This document shows, piece after piece, positions 1,947 through 11,488 of a stretch of 64,000 bases of DNA. The stretch's first letter is position 1. Every line of letters begins with the position of its first letter. Origin of the DNA: Escherichia phage JES2013; the sequence record KC690136; one strand, 5' to 3'. The position numbers and the translations under genes were made by a program. The notes below the pieces were generated by a model. It saw nothing but the letters and a program-made list of their open reading frames with translations, made no database searches and had not been told where the DNA came from.

Positions 1947-4900
1947 TTACTTCAGTTTCTCTTGCAACCCAGTAACAACCTCTGTCAATTTTTTAACCTG
2001 CTCCTCAAGGTCGGTTATTTTATCGTCCTGTTCCCTGCAAACCTGGACAAGCAAGCCTGTTACAGCTGCGTAATCCACGCTGTAGAATCTTTCCTCTGTT
2101 ATCAAAGGAGTTCCATCTTGATCAGGGTTTGGGATTTCCTTTCTTTGCACGAAAGAGCTAACTGCTTCCGGCAGCGCTTCAAGCACTTCTTGTGCTATAA
2201 CACCTGCATAAGGCATACCGTTCTCTTTAAGAGTGTAAGTATAACCCTTCATCTTCCGGATAGCTTCTAACGCATCAGGAATAACAGCTATGTTATCTTT
2301 CAGATCTCTGTCAGAACTCTGATTGACAGATGTGCAATTCACAGCGCCGTTTACAGAAAGATATCTTGATTTATCTGGCAAGGTACCGCAATGCCATACC
2401 CAATTTGATTGAGACTCGTCAAGAACCTTAAACTCTAACACGTTTGGACGATCTCCTGTGCTGCCGTTACCCCAATAATACATATGGGCGGCATTAGCAG
2501 GCATGTTGCCACCGTTATTAGTAACATGACTTCCAGAAATATATACCTTTAACTCTGGGGTTGGTATTTCCCCTTCCGGGGTTGTTCCTCCATACCTGAA
2601 GCTAACACCATTACCACCTGTTTGGGTCCACGGGCCCCAAGTGAAGACCTGTTTCACCATATTCCCATAACGTGTAAATCTATCGCCATGGTAGGTAATA
2701 TATTCTTGAACACACCCATCACCGTTATTGGCGTTATTTTGCAACACAATAAGTGTTCCGGCCTCATTTACGGGATAATGACGATCATATGTTGCATCAT
2801 TATTTGCAGGCTGATGGTAAATACCTTCCCACAATCCGTGATAGGTGTTAAGGTCTGAAGAACCAAGACCTTGACCCCTGTGTTGCATAGCCTTATTCCA
2901 GGGATGGTGATTACCACCTTCTATAGACCTGGTGTATAAGTTACTTTGTCTGCCAGCAATCTGGAAAGCGTAGTTTCCCGAGAATCCTACAGATAACCCG
3001 CCTACAACCATGGTATCTTGTGGGCCGTTAACATTACCAGCTATTATTTTTGACGGGTTGTTAGGCCCAAACTGGTTGTTCCAGTCTGCACCCGTGTGGC
3101 ATACAAAACCGCCCGGAGCTGAGAAAGTGCCATCTTTGTTGAAGTTGTAGAATCTATGAGCTGTGCCTACAACATCACGAACAATAACTTGAGCAGCTTC
3201 TGGAGTAGATCTGAACTCTGCCTGTCCTTGCAGTCTTGCACCATTACCACATTTAGAGGTAAAGGTGTTGTTGATCAGATCCTCTGTTCCTTCCGACGCA
3301 GCCTGGAACCCTGCATTAGAGAACAGTGCTTTTCGAGTGGTCTGACTACCAGGGCAAAGGTAGTCAATACCGTCTGCCCATAGCTCGACTTTAGGCATAT
3401 TCATTTTGCTCATCACAGCATAGCGTTCAGCAGTGCCTATATAGTGCCACTGTGTGCCGCCACCAGTGTAGAACCCTGAAGTACCTTTGAAGTCAACAAT
3501 AGGTCTGGTATTGGTGTTGTTATCTCCAAGAACAGCGAGATTCAAATCTGCTGACTGGAGAGGTGCAACGAACTTAACACCGTCCTGATTGTTTGTTACA
3601 GAGCCGACCTGGTAATCTTGCTCTCTGGTAAACACTTCGACAACATTTCTACTTGCGTATATGCTGACAGGGAAAGCACGAGCCTCTACATAGAAAGCAA
3701 CATACTCTTGTTTACCCCTTGTTGGAGCAACCATCCCAAGAAGTGCTTTTTCATTCTGGTAGAAATTTACTACCCCGTAGAAAGAGTCTCCTCTGTCTGT
3801 CCAACCACCAGTCCTATAGTGACACTGTAAGGTAGCACAGTTCATAGGGTCATTTCCAGATGACGATCTGGTAACTATGGTAATATCAGTACCAGTTGCT
3901 GGAGCATAGTACGGATCTGTTCTAACGATGATCGGGTAGTATTTCCCATCTTCCATCCCTGCGGTTCTTGGCAGTGTTAAGAAGTCTTTCACACCTGCTG
4001 CTATAGGAACTTTGAACAGATTCTGAGCATCTGCTAAAGTTGTAGCCCCAGTACCACCTGCGGCTTGAGGTAAAGGTTCCCACTTGGCCTTCCGGTTGTT
4101 ATAAACACCCCATTCCAGAGTGCCGTTACCGGATTCGTCCATCCCACCATCCCAGACAACCATCTTGGCGGCTTTCTTGGACCCCCAGAAGCCTCTTTCT
4201 GCCCCTGAACTACGGATCCATTCTCCAAGACCCCAGTTTGTCAGCTGACCAGTAAGATCCCCAACCTGCATGTATTTAGGGCAGTCTAACACGCCATCTT
4301 CGCGGAAACCTAAATATCTATGAGTTTCAGATCCTTTTGCACCTTTGTGCAGGTGGATTGTCAACCAAGCCTTATTGTCGTTTCTTACCTCAGAGTAGAT
4401 CCTATATCCATGCTCAAGGACACCGTCAGCGCTGTATTTGTCCCCGTTAACAATACCTGATGCTGACTTAACATCAGCAGAACTTTGAGACAGGTAAAGG
4501 TGCCCAAAGGTAGGGGAGTTTCTAGACCCGAGACCGATGTGCGCTCTAAAGGTATCATCGTTACGAGGTCTGACCATCGGCTGCCATGCAGTCCACTGAT
4601 TTGTGTTGGCCTGATAGGTTCTTAAATACCAAACATCTACGTTAGAGAATGGATAGTATTCCTGACGACAACCTGTACCGCCGTTAGCATTGTTCTGCCA
4701 AACAATCAGGTGACCAGCACCAGAACCTGCAGGGTAACCATTTGCCTCAGTTGCATAAGCAGTCATCGGCTGGTAGTATACACCATCCTGATTACCAGTC
4801 AAGTTATTGATATTGAAATTTGGCTCAAGGGCTGCACGTTGCTTATAGAAAGCACCGATATTGATACGGACTCCAGCGGCATCTCTAGCCCCTGTGCCGC

Positions 4901-5765
4901 CTTGCTCTATAGCAAGAGGTTGCCACGAGGCTGTTTGTTGGTTCCACATACCCCAACGGCCTGTTGCGTCAAGCTGCAAGTACCCTGCCGTGTTTAAATC
5001 ATCTCCAGCACGGATAACTGTTCTTGTTGGGTTGTTTGCCTCCAGGCGTTTAAATTCATCACGAAGTGCTATTCTTTTCGTTGTTGCTACACCGTTGGTT
5101 ACTGCAATGGTGTACATGGCTCCGGTGGTAGCGCCACGGAAAATACCATCAACAGTTGTAGTATCACGACGAGATACCACACCGTTCAGAAATTTTTCAC
5201 CAGCTGCTGCAGAAGGGTAGTTGGTAGTTCTTCCCTCTTCAATAACTGCAGGGCCAACAAAGTTATCAAGGTGAATAACATCGCCTACAGTGTGCACTGT
5301 ACCAAAATCTACACGCTGTGCAAGTGCTTTGGCATCGTTAGCTGTCTGAACAGTAACATCCATTACATCCTGGACAGACTGCCCTTCGGCTGTCATGATC
5401 ATAGATGCGCCAATGGTAGATTCCAGCTCCTCCCTTAAGGACGGGTCTGTATATACCGTCCATGCAGCGTCAGTAATCCCACCATCGGAGTACGGTGAAG
5501 ACAATGCAGGAACAGTGTGCGGAAATTCGCCTTTCCAACGCAGGTAGAGGTCTTCCTCTTCGAAGTAGGCAAAATCCATTGGGCCGTTTAACTTACCACC
5601 TTCCTTAAAGGAGATTACATGAGAAACAGTCCCATCAACATGGACAACATCGCCAATTTTTACACGACGGGTCAGGTCTGGTTGTTGAACAACCAGGTAA
5701 TCATCCTCTGTCACTGCGGTAGTGGCAGGAAGAGATTCAATTCTGACAACTTTAATATCAGCCAT
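1947..5765 (-). CDS. long tail fiber protein with C-terminal intramolecular chaperone (peptidase S74-like) domain
   Basis: 1272-aa ORF; C-terminal ~120 aa (SSDRDLKDNIAV...YAGVIAQE...coiled coil) matches the auto-cleaving chaperone domain of phage fibers and endosialidases; Gly-rich repeats; internal duplicated segment. Confidence 0.75.
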   Translation of the reverse strand: MADIKVVRIESLPATTAVTEDDYLVVQQPDLTRRVKIGDVVHVDGTVSHVISFKEGGKLNGPMDFAYFEEEDLYLRWKGEFPHTVPALSSPYSDGGITDAAWTVYTDPSLREELESTIGASMIMTAEGQSVQDVMDVTVQTANDAKALAQRVDFGTVHTVGDVIHLDNFVGPAVIEEGRTTNYPSAAAGEKFLNGVVSRRDTTTVDGIFRGATTGAMYTIAVTNGVATTKRIALRDEFKRLEANNPTRTVIRAGDDLNTAGYLQLDATGRWGMWNQQTASWQPLAIEQGGTGARDAAGVRINIGAFYKQRAALEPNFNINNLTGNQDGVYYQPMTAYATEANGYPAGSGAGHLIVWQNNANGGTGCRQEYYPFSNVDVWYLRTYQANTNQWTAWQPMVRPRNDDTFRAHIGLGSRNSPTFGHLYLSQSSADVKSASGIVNGDKYSADGVLEHGYRIYSEVRNDNKAWLTIHLHKGAKGSETHRYLGFREDGVLDCPKYMQVGDLTGQLTNWGLGEWIRSSGAERGFWGSKKAAKMVVWDGGMDESGNGTLEWGVYNNRKAKWEPLPQAAGGTGATTLADAQNLFKVPIAAGVKDFLTLPRTAGMEDGKYYPIIVRTDPYYAPATGTDITIVTRSSSGNDPMNCATLQCHYRTGGWTDRGDSFYGVVNFYQNEKALLGMVAPTRGKQEYVAFYVEARAFPVSIYASRNVVEVFTREQDYQVGSVTNNQDGVKFVAPLQSADLNLAVLGDNNTNTRPIVDFKGTSGFYTGGGTQWHYIGTAERYAVMSKMNMPKVELWADGIDYLCPGSQTTRKALFSNAGFQAASEGTEDLINNTFTSKCGNGARLQGQAEFRSTPEAAQVIVRDVVGTAHRFYNFNKDGTFSAPGGFVCHTGADWNNQFGPNNPSKIIAGNVNGPQDTMVVGGLSVGFSGNYAFQIAGRQSNLYTRSIEGGNHHPWNKAMQHRGQGLGSSDLNTYHGLWEGIYHQPANNDATYDRHYPVNEAGTLIVLQNNANNGDGCVQEYITYHGDRFTRYGNMVKQVFTWGPWTQTGGNGVSFRYGGTTPEGEIPTPELKVYISGSHVTNNGGNMPANAAHMYYWGNGSTGDRPNVLEFKVLDESQSNWVWHCGTLPDKSRYLSVNGAVNCTSVNQSSDRDLKDNIAVIPDALEAIRKMKGYTYTLKENGMPYAGVIAQEVLEALPEAVSSFVQRKEIPNPDQDGTPLITEERFYSVDYAAVTGLLVQVCREQDDKITDLEEQVKKLTEVVTGLQEKLK

Positions 5766-5800
5766 TCTTTCTCCTGAAAGGGGGCAAACAGCCCCCTATG

Positions 5801-8398
5801 TTAAAGGTACAATCCACGGTATTGAGCATAGAGGCCCAGACCGCGAAGGATTTCGCCAGAGTGATAGCCCACCGGATCAGAAACTGCCCAGCAGCCGTTT
5901 AAAACATTATCACCATTGATGAAGTGGTGCTTTTGCAGTAGCTTCATACAGGCTTCTACAACAATATCTATTTGAGGTATTGTCTCTGAATACCCGCACA
6001 GACCTAGCCAGCAGCAACCTGCAAGCCATTCACCTACCACCCACATCCTGTCCCCTCTGTCTTGATAAGAATATCCCCCAGAGGTGTTAAAGTCTGTAGG
6101 CAGATTTCCTGAATGAGATGACTGGAATCTGTTGAGGAACCATGCCCATTTCTGGCAGAACAGGAATAATCTTTCATCAACAGGTTCTTTATGTTTCTTG
6201 AGCTCATAGATTGTGCGGCACGCAGCAACAAAAGATCTTGACTGGAGCTTGGAGTTATCTACCATCTCCCACCAACCAGTCAACCCTTCATTACCTCTTT
6301 GCCATACATAACGTGAGGCAACTGGACCCTCTGTCTTAAATGTATTATTATACCAGACTTGAGCGTCATACAGAAAGCCTATTGTATTTGACAATCTATG
6401 GCGATCTATGTTTTCTGCACCCATGCAGTAGACTGCCGGGTATTGCATGCCTGGGTAGGGCCAATTTGGCCTTTCCTCTAAGAGATAGTTTTCCTTATCT
6501 ATCACCTTTCCGGCAGGGAACACACCTGGTGTGTGCCTGTATGCACCTTGCTTGTAGTTTCTGACATAGCAATCGCCAACCTTAGCGGTTGATTCTGTCT
6601 TGCTTGCCATCCATACGCTAAACCAGATTAGATAAGCATCCCTATCTGCAATATAGAATTGCGGCAGCGTGTTGACGCAATATAGATCAAACAAGCCATT
6701 ACCTATCTGCCTGTCGCTTAGGCTGAAATCTACAGAGGTGAGCCCCTTAGGATTAGCAAAGAAAGGTTTAATCTCTTCTTCAGTGTGATGAGGTTGTGTC
6801 GGATCTAGTTTGAAATCTCCTAGAGTAAGAGTTTCTGTTATCCACTGTCCATTAGTGGCATATAGATCAGCATACCATAACCACCTGTCTTTGTCAAGAA
6901 ATTTGACCCTTACCATCTCATCATCTGATCGATAAGTTACTGAGTTTAAAGAAATCTCTCTTCCAAAATTGAAAGTTACTTTACCTCTTGCTATATTACA
7001 ACGGGTGAAGTTGTCAGAGTGGTTGTAAATGTCGGTATCATACTGCATACTAACACTAGCGCCACCACTTACGACAATGTTTTCCTCTTTAGGTAAGAGA
7101 TATGGATTACCGTCTTTACCAACCACCTCTACGAAATCAGTAACCTTGGCAACTATTTCTGTTACCTCTGCCCCTCCAAAAGGAACACCTATCCTGTACT
7201 GTTTTTTGTTATTGTTGCCATCATTAAGGATGAAATGTGGCTGGAACAGAACCCCTTCTCCTCCGAAATTCATAACAATTTCAGCATCTCTGCCTATTTT
7301 GTATGTAGTCCCTTTTTGAATTATTTCGCAAGGCTGGCGTGCGTTCATTCTAAAATTGATATATCCGTCACTGTCCCTGCTCATGACAGGAACTGTTCCT
7401 GCAACAAGACAAGTACCATCTGTAAACGGTGCCTTAATCAACGTGGTCTTCCTAAACAGTTTGTCGTAGGCGTTTATATCACTGAAATTAAGCAACTTGT
7501 TGTAAGACTGTTCAAACGCGGTGTAATACTTTTCCTCACCTGTCAAGGTGTAGAGTTGATAACAAGCGTCACACCACATTTCTTCCCCGTCCAACTCTGG
7601 GGCCTGATTATCTGCAACCACGTTTATGGGATTTACAATTACAGGGGATCCTGCAGGTATCACCGATCCACCCTGCTCTTGAGGTAATCTTACACAATAG
7701 GTCACTTTGTGGTTGCCTGTAACACCCTTATCTTGTAATTGGATTGTGCCAAACTCTACAGACGTATGACCACTATCAGCTATACTACCGTTAGCCCAAT
7801 AGCGATTACCATCCCATGCTATATACCACTCAACCCACCAACTTAATCCGGATGTTGTCCAATCTGGGTTAGCATCTGTGCCACCGTAAACATCAGAGTC
7901 TACAGTGTTTCTTCCTAACACGCCGTTATACGCTTGGAATGCCTTGTCCAGGTATTCCCCCCATGTCGGAGATCCAGCTGGGATTTTTCCTCTACCATTG
8001 GTAAAAGACACCACCACATCTTTAAACCCACCATGTGATGGAACCCCATCTGTGGATAGAGGGTAGTGGGACAATCTTTGCATTTTACTTTCTACTGCAT
8101 ATGCACCCAGAAGATGACTATTGTAAGCTTCCCAAGCATCTTTTGCCCTATCCAGATAGAAATCGCTTTTCGATGCTCTGTATGCTTCAATGTATCCCAG
8201 AATCAACACAGCTTGGGACTCATGCATTGCCCAATCATTATTTATCTTATTACCTGCCCACCCTGCAGCTATAAGACCATCAGGGTTTACTAGCTTATTT
8301 TGTGTAGGGGTGTTGGTAATACCTGTGTTGTTATCGAGGCACTTCCTGTGCCCCTCAATCATCTGAAATACGTTATCAATGTTATGTTGAATACGCAT
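5801..8398 (-). CDS. large tail fiber/tailspike distal protein, possible carbohydrate-active domain
   Basis: 865-aa ORF immediately downstream of the 222-aa anchor-like protein; helix-rich N- and C-terminal regions flanking a beta-rich core; no motif confirmed. Confidence 0.4.
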   Translation of the reverse strand: MRIQHNIDNVFQMIEGHRKCLDNNTGITNTPTQNKLVNPDGLIAAGWAGNKINNDWAMHESQAVLILGYIEAYRASKSDFYLDRAKDAWEAYNSHLLGAYAVESKMQRLSHYPLSTDGVPSHGGFKDVVVSFTNGRGKIPAGSPTWGEYLDKAFQAYNGVLGRNTVDSDVYGGTDANPDWTTSGLSWWVEWYIAWDGNRYWANGSIADSGHTSVEFGTIQLQDKGVTGNHKVTYCVRLPQEQGGSVIPAGSPVIVNPINVVADNQAPELDGEEMWCDACYQLYTLTGEEKYYTAFEQSYNKLLNFSDINAYDKLFRKTTLIKAPFTDGTCLVAGTVPVMSRDSDGYINFRMNARQPCEIIQKGTTYKIGRDAEIVMNFGGEGVLFQPHFILNDGNNNKKQYRIGVPFGGAEVTEIVAKVTDFVEVVGKDGNPYLLPKEENIVVSGGASVSMQYDTDIYNHSDNFTRCNIARGKVTFNFGREISLNSVTYRSDDEMVRVKFLDKDRWLWYADLYATNGQWITETLTLGDFKLDPTQPHHTEEEIKPFFANPKGLTSVDFSLSDRQIGNGLFDLYCVNTLPQFYIADRDAYLIWFSVWMASKTESTAKVGDCYVRNYKQGAYRHTPGVFPAGKVIDKENYLLEERPNWPYPGMQYPAVYCMGAENIDRHRLSNTIGFLYDAQVWYNNTFKTEGPVASRYVWQRGNEGLTGWWEMVDNSKLQSRSFVAACRTIYELKKHKEPVDERLFLFCQKWAWFLNRFQSSHSGNLPTDFNTSGGYSYQDRGDRMWVVGEWLAGCCWLGLCGYSETIPQIDIVVEACMKLLQKHHFINGDNVLNGCWAVSDPVGYHSGEILRGLGLYAQYRGLYL

Positions 8399-8399
8399 C

Positions 8400-9068
8400 T
8401 TAGATAGCTCCTGCGATAATCAGTGCCCCGTACCAAGTTAACCCGTTGTCGTAGGTTTCCAACTTGAAAATGTCTGTTGCACCAGCTGTAAATGTTAGGA
8501 TAGGATCTCTTCCGTAGGACCATTTAACATTACCAGGCCAATAGACTTTGTTGCCGCCAGAGGTCTGAGTAATGCATACGGTTATAGTTCTCGCCACCCC
8601 TTCAAGACCTTCTGTTTGATTTTCAAAAGAGATTGTGGTATTTGAAGTTAGTCGAACTTTAAAGGTATCCGCAACTTCAAGATCCATATCAAGCTGACCA
8701 CCGATAGATCCGTAATCAACTATTCTGCCAGAAGAAGTTGCAGCAAGCTCACCAAAAACAGACCAGGCATTTGCAGACACACCCCCAGCACCCTCTACCG
8801 TGGAGTCTGGGAGGATTATTTTAGGATAATCCCCGTTCCACGTGTAGTAGCGCTTAGTTTCTGGATCATAAGCAAAGTCCTTCTTGCTCTTAAGATAACC
8901 ACCCTCTGTGAAATAGACTATCTTAGTAATGCTAAGATCGTTGACAACATCGTCAATCTTAGCCTTTCTTGTCCCATCAGTCTGGTTGACAACCAAGAAG
9001 TCATCACTCAGGACTGTTTCTGCATCTTCAAGATCTGGAATTGGTATTGTAGGATAAGCTACAGCCAT
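8400..9068 (-). CDS. short tail fiber/adaptor protein sharing the N-terminal anchor domain of the long fiber
   Basis: 222 aa; first ~100 aa align with N-terminus of the 1272-aa fiber (DDFLVVNQTDGTRKAKIDDVV vs DDYLVVQQPDLTRRVKIGDVV; EGGYLKSKKDFAY vs EGGKLNGPMDFAY). Confidence 0.55.
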   Translation of the reverse strand: MAVAYPTIPIPDLEDAETVLSDDFLVVNQTDGTRKAKIDDVVNDLSITKIVYFTEGGYLKSKKDFAYDPETKRYYTWNGDYPKIILPDSTVEGAGGVSANAWSVFGELAATSSGRIVDYGSIGGQLDMDLEVADTFKVRLTSNTTISFENQTEGLEGVARTITVCITQTSGGNKVYWPGNVKWSYGRDPILTFTAGATDIFKLETYDNGLTWYGALIIAGAI

Positions 9069-9077
9069 GATTTCTCC

Positions 9078-9794
9078 TTAGTTAACATCAATAGCACGAC
9101 CAGACTGGTTGGCAATAGCCTCGTCATTAGAGGTAGCAATAACACCAGAGTATTCGCGCTCATCTGGAGCAAGCGTCCAGGTATTGCGGTTAATGGTTTG
9201 TTCTGCCTCAGTCATCAGCAGATCTTTATCCTGAGTCAACAGAGAGCCTACAGGGATCGGGTTTTCCATCTCAGGACCAGCATACTGGTTCCACCATGTG
9301 GCATCTCCGGTTCTAGGCAACCTGAAGTTGATCAGATAGTACAGTTTATTAGCCCACTTAATCCAACCCTCATCATCACAGAGAGAGGTTGTCCCAGAAT
9401 CAGGCTGTGGGTAGGTGAACTGATCAAGACCTACGAAAGCCAGCCTTACAATCTCGTTCTCTTTGGTAACAACCTCAAAGAACGCTTGGTATGTTCTCGA
9501 TCTTCGATCCATGGTAGACTGGAAGTTTATGATGTTTAGCACATCCGGCTCTTGTCTTGCCACTTCCATAATCTTGTTATCAAGAACAGTCTTCATGACC
9601 TTCTTACTGAGAAAGTCCATATAAGGGAAGCCAAACAACTCGTCAAAGTACCAGCTCCCCTTCCACGTATTAAACCTCATCCACAAGCGCTGGCGCAGAC
9701 TTACCTGGTTTGAATCTATCAACTCAAGACCTTTGTCTATCGCCAAATCACCTGTCTGTGGGTCCATCAATATATCACTGTAAAGCGTAGCCAT
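9078..9794 (-). CDS. hypothetical baseplate/tail protein
   Basis: 238-aa ORF in tail module. Confidence 0.45.
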   Translation of the reverse strand: MATLYSDILMDPQTGDLAIDKGLELIDSNQVSLRQRLWMRFNTWKGSWYFDELFGFPYMDFLSKKVMKTVLDNKIMEVARQEPDVLNIINFQSTMDRRSRTYQAFFEVVTKENEIVRLAFVGLDQFTYPQPDSGTTSLCDDEGWIKWANKLYYLINFRLPRTGDATWWNQYAGPEMENPIPVGSLLTQDKDLLMTEAEQTINRNTWTLAPDEREYSGVIATSNDEAIANQSGRAIDVN

Positions 9795-9806: not shown

Positions 9807-10484
9807 TTAGTGCGGTCCACTTGTCTCGCCATCAGGGCAAGAGTGGGTATGACCTTTATATTCTGCATAGAATGAATCCAAATCCACACCAGCAGCAGTT
9901 ATAATTCTACCAGATGGGTCTATTGTGGCACCATTCATTCTGATATTCCCATCCACAGCAGCTCGCAAATTGGCAGCCCCGTTAGTGAAAGAAAACTCCC
10001 CGCTGCTGTCGCACCGTAATGTCCCACCAGGTGTTTGAAGCTCAAAATCGCCAGAAGGTGTCAGTTTAAAATAAACCCTATCATTCCATAACTCTACGTT
10101 ATCAGGATCGATCTGTAAAGCGTTTGAGTCTGAATGGACAGAGGTGATTGCCCACCCTGGAAACAGGCCGTGAGTTTGTTGATCGTCGTTATTGTTTTCA
10201 TTTCTCTCTGAAAACTGTAATCCTACAACATCTCCAGCCTTAATAGGAAGTGTTAACCTTGCCTTTCCGCTGTTTGCAGACATCACCTGAATTGGAACGT
10301 CATAGATAAGAGGGTATCTCTCCACATCTCCGTCATCAAACGTAGTTTCAGCTATTGGCTGCACGGCTGCAGAAGGTATACTGTAGTCAACACTGACAAC
10401 TCTGGCCCTGATACTGGTGTGGTAGTCCCTCATTATTTTTTCTATAAAGGATCTTACAGCAGCATCTTTCCTATTTATTGCCAT
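9807..10484 (-). CDS. putative baseplate spike/needle-like protein
   Basis: 225-aa ORF; C-terminal His/Cys cluster (YKGHTHSCPDGETSGPH) reminiscent of metal-binding spike tips; position after tape measure. Confidence 0.3.
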   Translation of the reverse strand: MAINRKDAAVRSFIEKIMRDYHTSIRARVVSVDYSIPSAAVQPIAETTFDDGDVERYPLIYDVPIQVMSANSGKARLTLPIKAGDVVGLQFSERNENNNDDQQTHGLFPGWAITSVHSDSNALQIDPDNVELWNDRVYFKLTPSGDFELQTPGGTLRCDSSGEFSFTNGAANLRAAVDGNIRMNGATIDPSGRIITAAGVDLDSFYAEYKGHTHSCPDGETSGPH

Positions 10485-11488
10485 TATACCTCCTCAGTTT
10501 TGTCAACAACTCCACCCACTGTTTCCCCAAGGCCAAGCTCTGTAGTGTAATCACCTCCTTCTATGGTGCCCTTATGATGCACCGTGATCACCTTATAGAA
10601 TCCTGTATATTGCTTGCTTTTAAGATAAATAGTGGACTCTGGGAGGATAGCTCCGTTAAGGCATGTGGTTACAGTAAGGCCAACATCCTCTCTCGGGTTT
10701 TTCTTTTTCTTTTTAGATGTCGAACCACCTTTGGCAGCAGCTTTAGCTTTTCGTTTTTTAGCAGGTTCTGGGTTTTTAGGGGTAGGAGATCCGTGCATCC
10801 CAGACTCTGCACTTATTTCAAACACAGAGTCTTTGAACCTTTTTCCAACCTTGGTCCAATACAAAGCCCCATCCTGAACGCTAAATGTGGAGTTGGTCAG
10901 CCTTGCAAACCTGCGGAGGTTCTCTGCAGTGTTTCCAGAGAAAGCCATAGAGTATTGCAAAGTCTGGTTTCCAAAACCAACAACCCTACCTTTTGGCAAG
11001 TTCATATCCTTCAGTAGGTCATTAAGCACAGAGTTCAGAGGTGTGCCTTTCTGATAAGATCTTGTGCTTTGGCACTTAATGATGTTCTCAGTGCCATCCC
11101 CAAAGATGAACTTAGTTTTTCTGGTCGGACCTTCCCACCTGTCTTCAACAAACTCCACAGTTCCGGAGAATATCAACTGGTTCTCATTATCATAGCCAGC
11201 TTCAAACATAACTGCAAGGGCATCAGCCTGATGCATATCCAGATAGTTAACTGTATCGTCAGACAGGTTGTAAACTGTCACATAACCTTTGTTTGGCTCT
11301 TTGGTATTGTCCTTTTGTATGTCAAACTCTATATTGGCAGCACCAGTGTCCGAGCTAACTTCATAAACTCCGGAATCACTCTCCCCTTTCTTTTCAACAG
11401 ATTTTGGGATATTGGTTTTTGATTTACCGCCATGTTCTACAGGACGACCAAACAATAATCGCCATGTTCTACGTCTGTACTCTGCCAT
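10484..11488 (-). CDS. hypothetical tail protein with lysine-rich linker
   Basis: 334-aa ORF; internal KKRKAKAAAKGGSTSKKKKK stretch. Confidence 0.45.
   Translation of the reverse strand: MAEYRRRTWRLLFGRPVEHGGKSKTNIPKSVEKKGESDSGVYEVSSDTGAANIEFDIQKDNTKEPNKGYVTVYNLSDDTVNYLDMHQADALAVMFEAGYDNENQLIFSGTVEFVEDRWEGPTRKTKFIFGDGTENIIKCQSTRSYQKGTPLNSVLNDLLKDMNLPKGRVVGFGNQTLQYSMAFSGNTAENLRRFARLTNSTFSVQDGALYWTKVGKRFKDSVFEISAESGMHGSPTPKNPEPAKKRKAKAAAKGGSTSKKKKKNPREDVGLTVTTCLNGAILPESTIYLKSKQYTGFYKVITVHHKGTIEGGDYTTELGLGETVGGVVDKTEEV

Follow-up and report, generated by a model that had tools for sequence, protein, structure and literature searches.

What kind of protein is the 865-residue product encoded in the tail module of Escherichia phage JES2013, and what might it do at the cell surface? 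We addressed this question for ORF42, a minus-strand gene at positions 5801–8398 of the 64,000-nucleotide stretch of sequence record KC690136 that was analysed (hereafter, the window). An initial annotation of the gene, made from the sequence, had suggested an enzymatic, polysaccharide-degrading tailspike rather than a simple fibre. Our analysis supports the enzymatic part of that idea more than the tailspike part: at a probability of roughly 55%, we consider ORF42 to be a tail protein of Vequintavirus (rV5-like) phages in which a six-hairpin barrel, mounted on the particle by an adapter, cleaves envelope polysaccharide. The product is probably a virion-borne, glycan-active enzyme, as predicted below from its fold, conservation and gene context.

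The listing and translation of open reading frames (ORFs) delimit ORF42 as an ATG-to-stop frame of 865 codons. Over 2,598 nucleotides its DNA shows 100% identity to E. coli O157 typing phage 4 (KP869102); identity to rV5, in which it corresponds to ORF42, is 98%, and 118 phage records carry the gene at 90% identity or more. In comparisons with four relatives of 90–98% nucleotide identity, the ratio of nonsynonymous to synonymous substitution rates (dN/dS) was 0.016–0.038, an indication from sequence comparison that ORF42 is a real gene, expressed and under purifying selection. The protein is the orthologue of rV5 gp42 and of phi92 gp141 (35% identity, E 1e-178), and the profile of PHROG 2871 ('tail protein') matches it over its full length (residues 1–863, E = 0, 1186 bits). 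An exhaustive profile search extended this family to 364 representatives at 50% identity, and members were found in 523 phage records. Both rV5 gp42 and gp43, the product of the neighbouring gene, have been found in virions by mass spectrometry (PMC3606486). Gene context and the mass spectrometry of rV5 gp42 together place ORF42 among virion-associated, tail-module-encoded proteins, as is the case for tailspike depolymerases.

Two minor observations concern the records themselves. Between 18 and 23 GenBank records named 'Campylobacter phage' (MG0656xx, host C. jejuni) are 98–99% identical to E. coli Vequintavirus across ORF42, and their host labels look doubtful. One family representative of 1250 residues (P0014) carries RCC1/WD40_RLD repeats at residues 424–648, before the C-terminal half of the family region.

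An AlphaFold2 model of ORF42 (predicted local distance difference test score, pLDDT, 89.8; predicted template-modelling score, pTM, 0.86), with secondary structure read by DSSP, bore out the expectation of helix-rich N- and C-terminal regions around a beta-rich middle. The helix-rich peptide quoted in the initial annotation, DRGDRMWVVGEWLAGCCWLGLCGYSETIPQ, is present at about residues 780–809, near the C terminus. The role that had been implied for the beta-rich core, that of the catalytic body, did not survive. A third helical hairpin, overlooked in that first reading, lies at residues 269–311, and in the model the helical ends and this middle hairpin together build one (alpha/alpha)6 barrel whose sequence is broken up into three pieces (barrel helices at residues 7–23, 59–96, 269–305 and 663–864). 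The barrel is predicted to be closed, as in the six-hairpin glycosidase superfamily. The beta-rich stretches at about residues 100–257 and 316–640 are predicted to be insertions, one of them resembling a carbohydrate-binding module (CBM) or jelly roll, and in the model both appear to sit in long loops that enter the inner helices, on the usual active-site face of such barrels.

Along the minus strand, model and conservation divide the protein into five parts. The N-terminal helix and first barrel hairpin, with a conserved TTEGQ-type motif, comprise residues 1–99 (8102–8398), and are followed by the beta-rich insertion A (residues 100–257; 7628–8101). The middle barrel hairpin, which bears the family motif NAxDAExWF, spans residues 258–315 (7454–7627). 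Insertion B, a predicted beta sandwich of CBM/jelly-roll type, occupies residues 316–640 (6479–7453); it is delimited by the model, by Foldseek and by a match to PHROG 23426 at residues 482–580. The C-terminal barrel half, which includes the helix quoted above, makes up residues 641–865 (5804–6478).

In structural comparison the top matches of this barrel were mostly hydrolases, at 8–13% sequence identity. A Foldseek search of the whole PDB returned no full-length solved relative of ORF42; its global matches (template-modelling score ≤0.18) are meaningless because the barrel is discontinuous in sequence, and local matches for the beta regions were CBM/jelly-roll-like. A single-sequence search of the PDB gave no match. 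Restricting the profile to the barrel improved the E values, with matches to GH76 (glycoside hydrolase family 76; E 1e-7) and to YteR (E 2e-3), but these consist only of repeats of hairpin motifs aligned out of register, and we therefore assigned no glycoside hydrolase (GH) family. Among GH8, GH76, GH88, GH105 and GH48, none gave a profile match at curated thresholds with its signature residues in register. The motif NAxDAExWF bears some likeness to the GH8 signature but fails the pattern, and is no more than a lead. Membership of the six-hairpin superfamily is supported, with no CAZy family assignable. This outcome agrees with the earlier remark that no glycoside hydrolase or lyase signature could be recognised, since no match reached curated thresholds and the sub-threshold ones were at the level of hairpins. 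For the proposed depolymerase activity it cuts both ways: the barrel is of a glycosidase type and an orthologue has been predicted to be a glycosidase, but no CAZy family was matched.

The pattern of conservation would fit a functional site in this barrel. Across 54 family members, which share 22% identity on average, the residues conserved in at least 90% are E60, Q62, D270, R341, Y489, D502, Q680, W699, R721 and E849. D270 is conserved in 93% of members and Q680 is invariant, and E272 forms part of the NAxDAExWF motif. Strongly conserved positions number about 10–11 per 100 in insertion A and in both barrel halves, compared with 4 per 100 in insertion B, the most variable part of the family, although R341, Y489 and D502 are almost invariant despite their location there. 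Catalytic residues of six-hairpin enzymes are located at the starts of barrel helices, and E60 and D270 occupy such positions in the DSSP assignment of the model. We infer from these features that E60, D270/E272 and E849 are the candidate catalytic residues of ORF42.

Immediately upstream lies ORF43 (8400–9068, minus strand), the orthologue of rV5 gp43, which encodes 222 residues and is annotated as a tail fibre protein. Its stop codon lies one base from the ORF42 start codon (TAAgATG) and an AGGAG sequence lies within its 3′ end; the two genes are translationally coupled. ORF listing and homology identify its product as an adapter. The N-terminal docking module (residues 1–111; 8736–9068) contains the Pfam domain Tail_spike_N at residues 51–105 (E 2e-10) and is homologous to the N terminus of the 1272-residue fibre encoded downstream of ORF42 (38% identity, E 2e-18). 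The C-terminal connector domain (residues 112–222; 8403–8735) is all-beta and was defined by a hidden Markov model (HMM), predicted structure and co-occurrence; phi92 gp140 aligns with it at 42% identity, it is the only part of the adapter that was modelled confidently, and no model in Pfam or NCBIfam covers it. ORF42 had been described as lying between two fibre genes, and this holds on the downstream side (the fibre at 1947–5765), whereas its upstream neighbour is this adapter and not a full fibre. The statement that ORF42 lacks an anchor domain also agrees with the data, as Pfam and NCBIfam found no domain in it, and anchoring is apparently supplied in trans by the upstream gene. A separate adapter with a recognised docking domain beside its cargo is the arrangement of the CBA120, G7C and K1-5-type systems. 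The label 'sialidase domain protein' given to the ORF43 orthologue in the BASEL collection is unsupported by Pfam, which finds only Tail_spike_N.

This pairing recurs throughout the family. A small gene stands directly 5′ of the ORF42 homologue in the Autographiviridae podophage Atoyac10, in BP63 (Rosemountvirus), in Salmonella phage 7-11, in Roscha1 (Ounavirinae) and in phi92 (gp140); by taxon, the adapter–cargo pair was recorded in Autographiviridae, Rosemountvirus, Grimontviridae, Ounavirinae and phi92. What these small proteins have in common is a C-terminal domain of about 100 residues; their N termini differ. Of the 80 loci with enough upstream sequence, 74 have an ORF that matches the connector HMM and stops where the large gene starts, and across phage records the connector was found in 522 and the large protein in 523, with genus counts in agreement. 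The N-terminal module of the adapter changes with the lineage. In the T7-like phage Atoyac10 it is Phage_T7_tail, and adapter and ORF42 homologue occupy the position of the gp17 fibre. In a clade of prophages or viral contigs (L024) the adapter is a 563-residue protein with an N terminus resembling a major tail protein (phrog_158; 2313–4004 of that locus), and downstream of the large gene lies another phrog_158-like one (6847–7353). This suggests that the barrel protein decorates the tail tube there.

The six adapter-less loci all belong to one group, and none of them contains a connector match. Detailed examination of one of them, L077, showed the family protein fused to gpI, a baseplate protein of P2 (Tail_P2_I, E 6e-52), with Baseplate_J on one side of the fusion gene and an H-type fibre on the other. 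The locus of another family member, P0034, also lacks an adapter, and this protein has its own N-terminal extension of 277 residues. The connector was never found inside family proteins. Together, the co-occurrence and the fusions that replace the adapter indicate, at the level of sequence, that the adapter and the barrel protein may form an obligate module of two parts, in which the docking end can be exchanged and the connector stays constant.

A second set of fusions may bear on the substrate. In two family proteins the family region (residues 13–947 in P0017 and 278–1190 in P0034) is followed by the domains NCTSP_N and TIM-barrel_NCTSP. The same two domains are carried by phi92 gp142 (E 1e-81), the product of the gene directly after gp141, and the family gene adjoins an NCTSP gene in three further related contigs. 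No NCTSP gene was seen near the family gene in the other collected loci, within the sequence covered; in rV5-type genomes the gene for the corresponding protein, gp34, lies about 12 kb from ORF42, outside the window. Recognition of NGR polysaccharide in these myophages is reportedly the task of phi92 gp142, a protein of the N4 gp65 type, and NGR has been proposed to contain N-acetylmannosamine (ManNAc). The fusions hint, as Rosetta-stone evidence, that the family protein and the NCTSP module could act together, and they suggest NGR exopolysaccharide as one candidate substrate.

On the basis of these findings, the most likely course of events is as follows. The ORF43 product would mount the ORF42 protein on the baseplate or fibre periphery: its lineage-specific N-terminal module, here Tail_spike_N as on the 1272-residue fibre, would dock to the particle, and its C-terminal beta-sandwich connector would bind the ORF42 protein. 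As the phage nears the cell surface, the mounted barrel would bind and cleave a conserved envelope polysaccharide of Gram-negative hosts, with insertion B as a putative accessory module for sugar binding or specificity.

Several observations weigh against an active, adapter-mounted glycanase. No Pfam family matched ORF42 at E values up to 1, nor did any NCBIfam family at curated thresholds. Profile-to-PDB comparison gave weak matches to GH76, cellobiose 2-epimerase, a six-hairpin glycosidase, YteR and LanC-like proteins, with the hairpin repeats out of register, and proteins other than hydrolases have the (alpha/alpha)6 fold too, among them epimerases, terpene cyclases, LanC and the tail protein VP4 of SSV19. 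The putative position of the conserved acids on the active-site face is read from the secondary structure of the model only, and the predicted binding between adapter and ORF42 draws on co-occurrence and on direct fusions that take the place of the adapter. The literature searched yielded no experimental work, biochemical or structural, on members of the family, and only HHpred-type remarks on phi92 gp141 and on ORF17 of phage S144. Finally, of 67 positions conserved in the family, the rV5 clade deviates at 16, and nine of these 16 are aromatic (Fisher's exact test, p = 3e-4); the replacements include W274M, Y622H, F629A, W643R, Y651M and W715N. The rV5-clade protein differs from phi92 gp141 and the other members at several conserved aromatic positions, which the phi92 and PVP-SE1 orthologues keep, and a loop of about 13 residues that gp141 has near residue 100 is missing from it. 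These replacements could reflect a changed substrate, or a binding cleft that has been degraded or lost, and they are the main reason for our caution about activity in this phage.

One possible explanation for this pattern is that the barrel is a non-catalytic module, either a structural block of the baseplate or fibre or a lectin-like, sugar-binding receptor-binding protein, which kept an enzyme fold and lost cleavage, at least in the rV5 clade. In addition to the missing aromatics, it would account for the fusion of the domain to the baseplate wedge protein gpI in P2-like prophages, for the occurrence of a related fold in a tail protein of the archaeal virus SSV19 and for the lack of a match to any glycoside hydrolase signature. 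We nevertheless consider it the less likely explanation, albeit a credible one. The rV5 clade keeps all conserved acids of the family, and E60, Q62, D270, E272, Q680, R721 and E849 are all retained; selection on the gene is strongly purifying; and the equal conservation of insertion A and both barrel halves fits a functional site rather than a scaffold. A different reaction on the same fold, by a polysaccharide lyase or by an epimerase- or isomerase-like modifier of surface glycans, is improbable. AGE-type epimerases use conserved histidines, whereas in this family not one histidine reaches 80% conservation among members, and the best structural matches of the barrel, some epimerase-like profile matches notwithstanding, are mostly hydrolases. 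The classical trimeric beta-helix tailspike that the initial annotation implied, with a catalytic beta-rich core, has in its favour the beta-rich middle of the protein and the position of the gene in a tail-fibre cluster, but is effectively refuted by the model, as the barrel is formed from helical termini with beta insertions, there is no right-handed parallel beta-helix body, and the N-terminal anchor expected in the same polypeptide is instead the Tail_spike_N domain of the separate ORF43 product.

The reading of ORF42 as a glycan-active enzyme agrees with earlier descriptions of its relatives. phi92 gp141 has been tabulated as a predicted glycosidase, and the BASEL annotation of the orthologue is 'lateral tail fiber protein with glycosidase domains'. 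For ORF17 of phage S144, which we take to be a family homologue, presuming so from its synteny with BP63, an HHpred match to a hydrolase was noted, yet the protein was called 'neither spike nor fibre'. A 2026 cryo-electron microscopy study of phi92 left fibre II unassigned and listed gp140 among fibre-shaped candidates; it never mentions gp141, the likely partner of gp140 (the two genes span 4239–7588 of locus L087). The gene itself is known and a glycosidase role had already been predicted for its orthologues, so that novelty is limited; what is usefully added here is the architecture of the split barrel, its dedicated adapter, the replacement of that adapter by fusions and the connection to NCTSP.

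The closest known systems are phi92 gp140/gp141 and the rV5 proteins gp42 and gp43, part of the 'Swiss army knife' tail of Vequintavirinae, which are direct homologues of the ORF43/ORF42 pair in the same gene order after the sheath initiator. Unlike the barrels of the six-hairpin glycoside hydrolases GH8, GH48, GH76 and GH88/GH105, that of ORF42 is interrupted by two large beta insertions, one about 160 and the other about 325 residues long, and whereas those enzymes are free or secreted, ORF42 is a virion component that is predicted to be adapter-mounted. The adapters of CBA120 (TSP1–4), G7C (gp63.1/gp66) and the K1-5/SP6 type carry beta-helix trimers as cargo, in contrast to the alpha-barrel of ORF42, and the ORF43 connector differs from those systems in being a distinct domain without a curated model that is dedicated to the ORF42 family. 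The N4 gp65-type 'non-contractile tail sheath' module (phi92 gp142, rV5 gp34) is tied to the family by the P0017 and P0034 fusions and by adjacency, although its own domains, NCTSP_N and TIM-barrel_NCTSP, are absent from ORF42 according to Pfam. The pairing of modules in these fusions recalls, by analogy, exopolysaccharide-system proteins such as PgaB and PelA, in which deacetylase-like and glycosidase-like modules within one polypeptide act on one polymer; the folds and families differ, and PgaB and PelA are bacterial periplasmic proteins rather than virion components.

It is tempting to extend the argument further. The family could represent a new and widespread group of six-hairpin glycanases that are carried on the virion and have a connector adapter of their own. 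In NGR-dependent phages (Vequintavirus and phi92-like), such an enzyme and the deacetylase-like fibre of gp65 type would jointly bind and cleave ManNAc-containing NGR, with gp140–gp141 accounting for density still unassigned in the phi92 baseplate, either fibre II or the fibre I arm. We regard this extended proposal as speculative and doubtful as a whole.

The question matters beyond a single phage. rV5-like and phi92-like phages are among the coliphages with the broadest host range and are candidates for therapy, and for one conserved component of their tails the analysis proposes a split barrel, names residues that could be catalytic, and connects the protein with a dedicated adapter and, genetically, with an NGR-recognising fibre. 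The family spreads across Vequintavirinae, phi92-like phages, Autographiviridae, Rosemountvirus, Grimontviridae, Ounavirinae (as annotated) and P2-like prophages. If the activity is real, the family would add a class that is not based on the beta helix to the virion depolymerases; if it is not confirmed, ORF42 would simply be a conserved structural protein of the tail whose fold derives from an enzyme. The portable pair of connector and cargo could also serve engineering.

The surrounding genes place the pair within the tail module. The genes are transcribed in the order tape measure, tube initiator, hub (10484–11488), spike (9807–10484), a sheath-initiator-like gene (9078–9794), the 222-residue adapter gene, the 865-residue ORF42 and the 1272-residue fibre. 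Domain and homology searches identify the last (1947–5765, minus strand) as a lateral tail fibre, the orthologue of rV5 gp41, with a C-terminal Peptidase_S74 chaperone domain; it is a neighbour on the same scaffold, separate from the enzyme. A scan for tandem repeats found none in ORF42. Between the ORF42 stop codon and the ribosome-binding site of ORF41, inspection of the minus strand revealed a GC-rich hairpin (GGGGGC-tgttt-GCCCCC followed by ttt; 5777–5796), which might attenuate read-through into the fibre gene. A scan for consensus terminators did not flag this hairpin, and promoter and terminator scans around these genes gave results at chance level only.

Further downstream, three small minus-strand genes at 279–1847 encode a Dit-like protein (phrog_1302; 1257–1847), a tail protein (phrog_2048; 704–1270) and a DUF6950 protein (279–716). 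Together with the counterpart of rV5 ORF37 (1279 residues), which lies beyond the start of the window, they resemble a siphovirus-type, PY54-like tail-tip module inside a myovirus fibre cluster. On a larger scale, the GC skew of the window is negative over the first 34 kb and positive over the rest (34–64 kb), and the switch in sign near 34 kb probably marks a change in the direction of transcription between genome arms.

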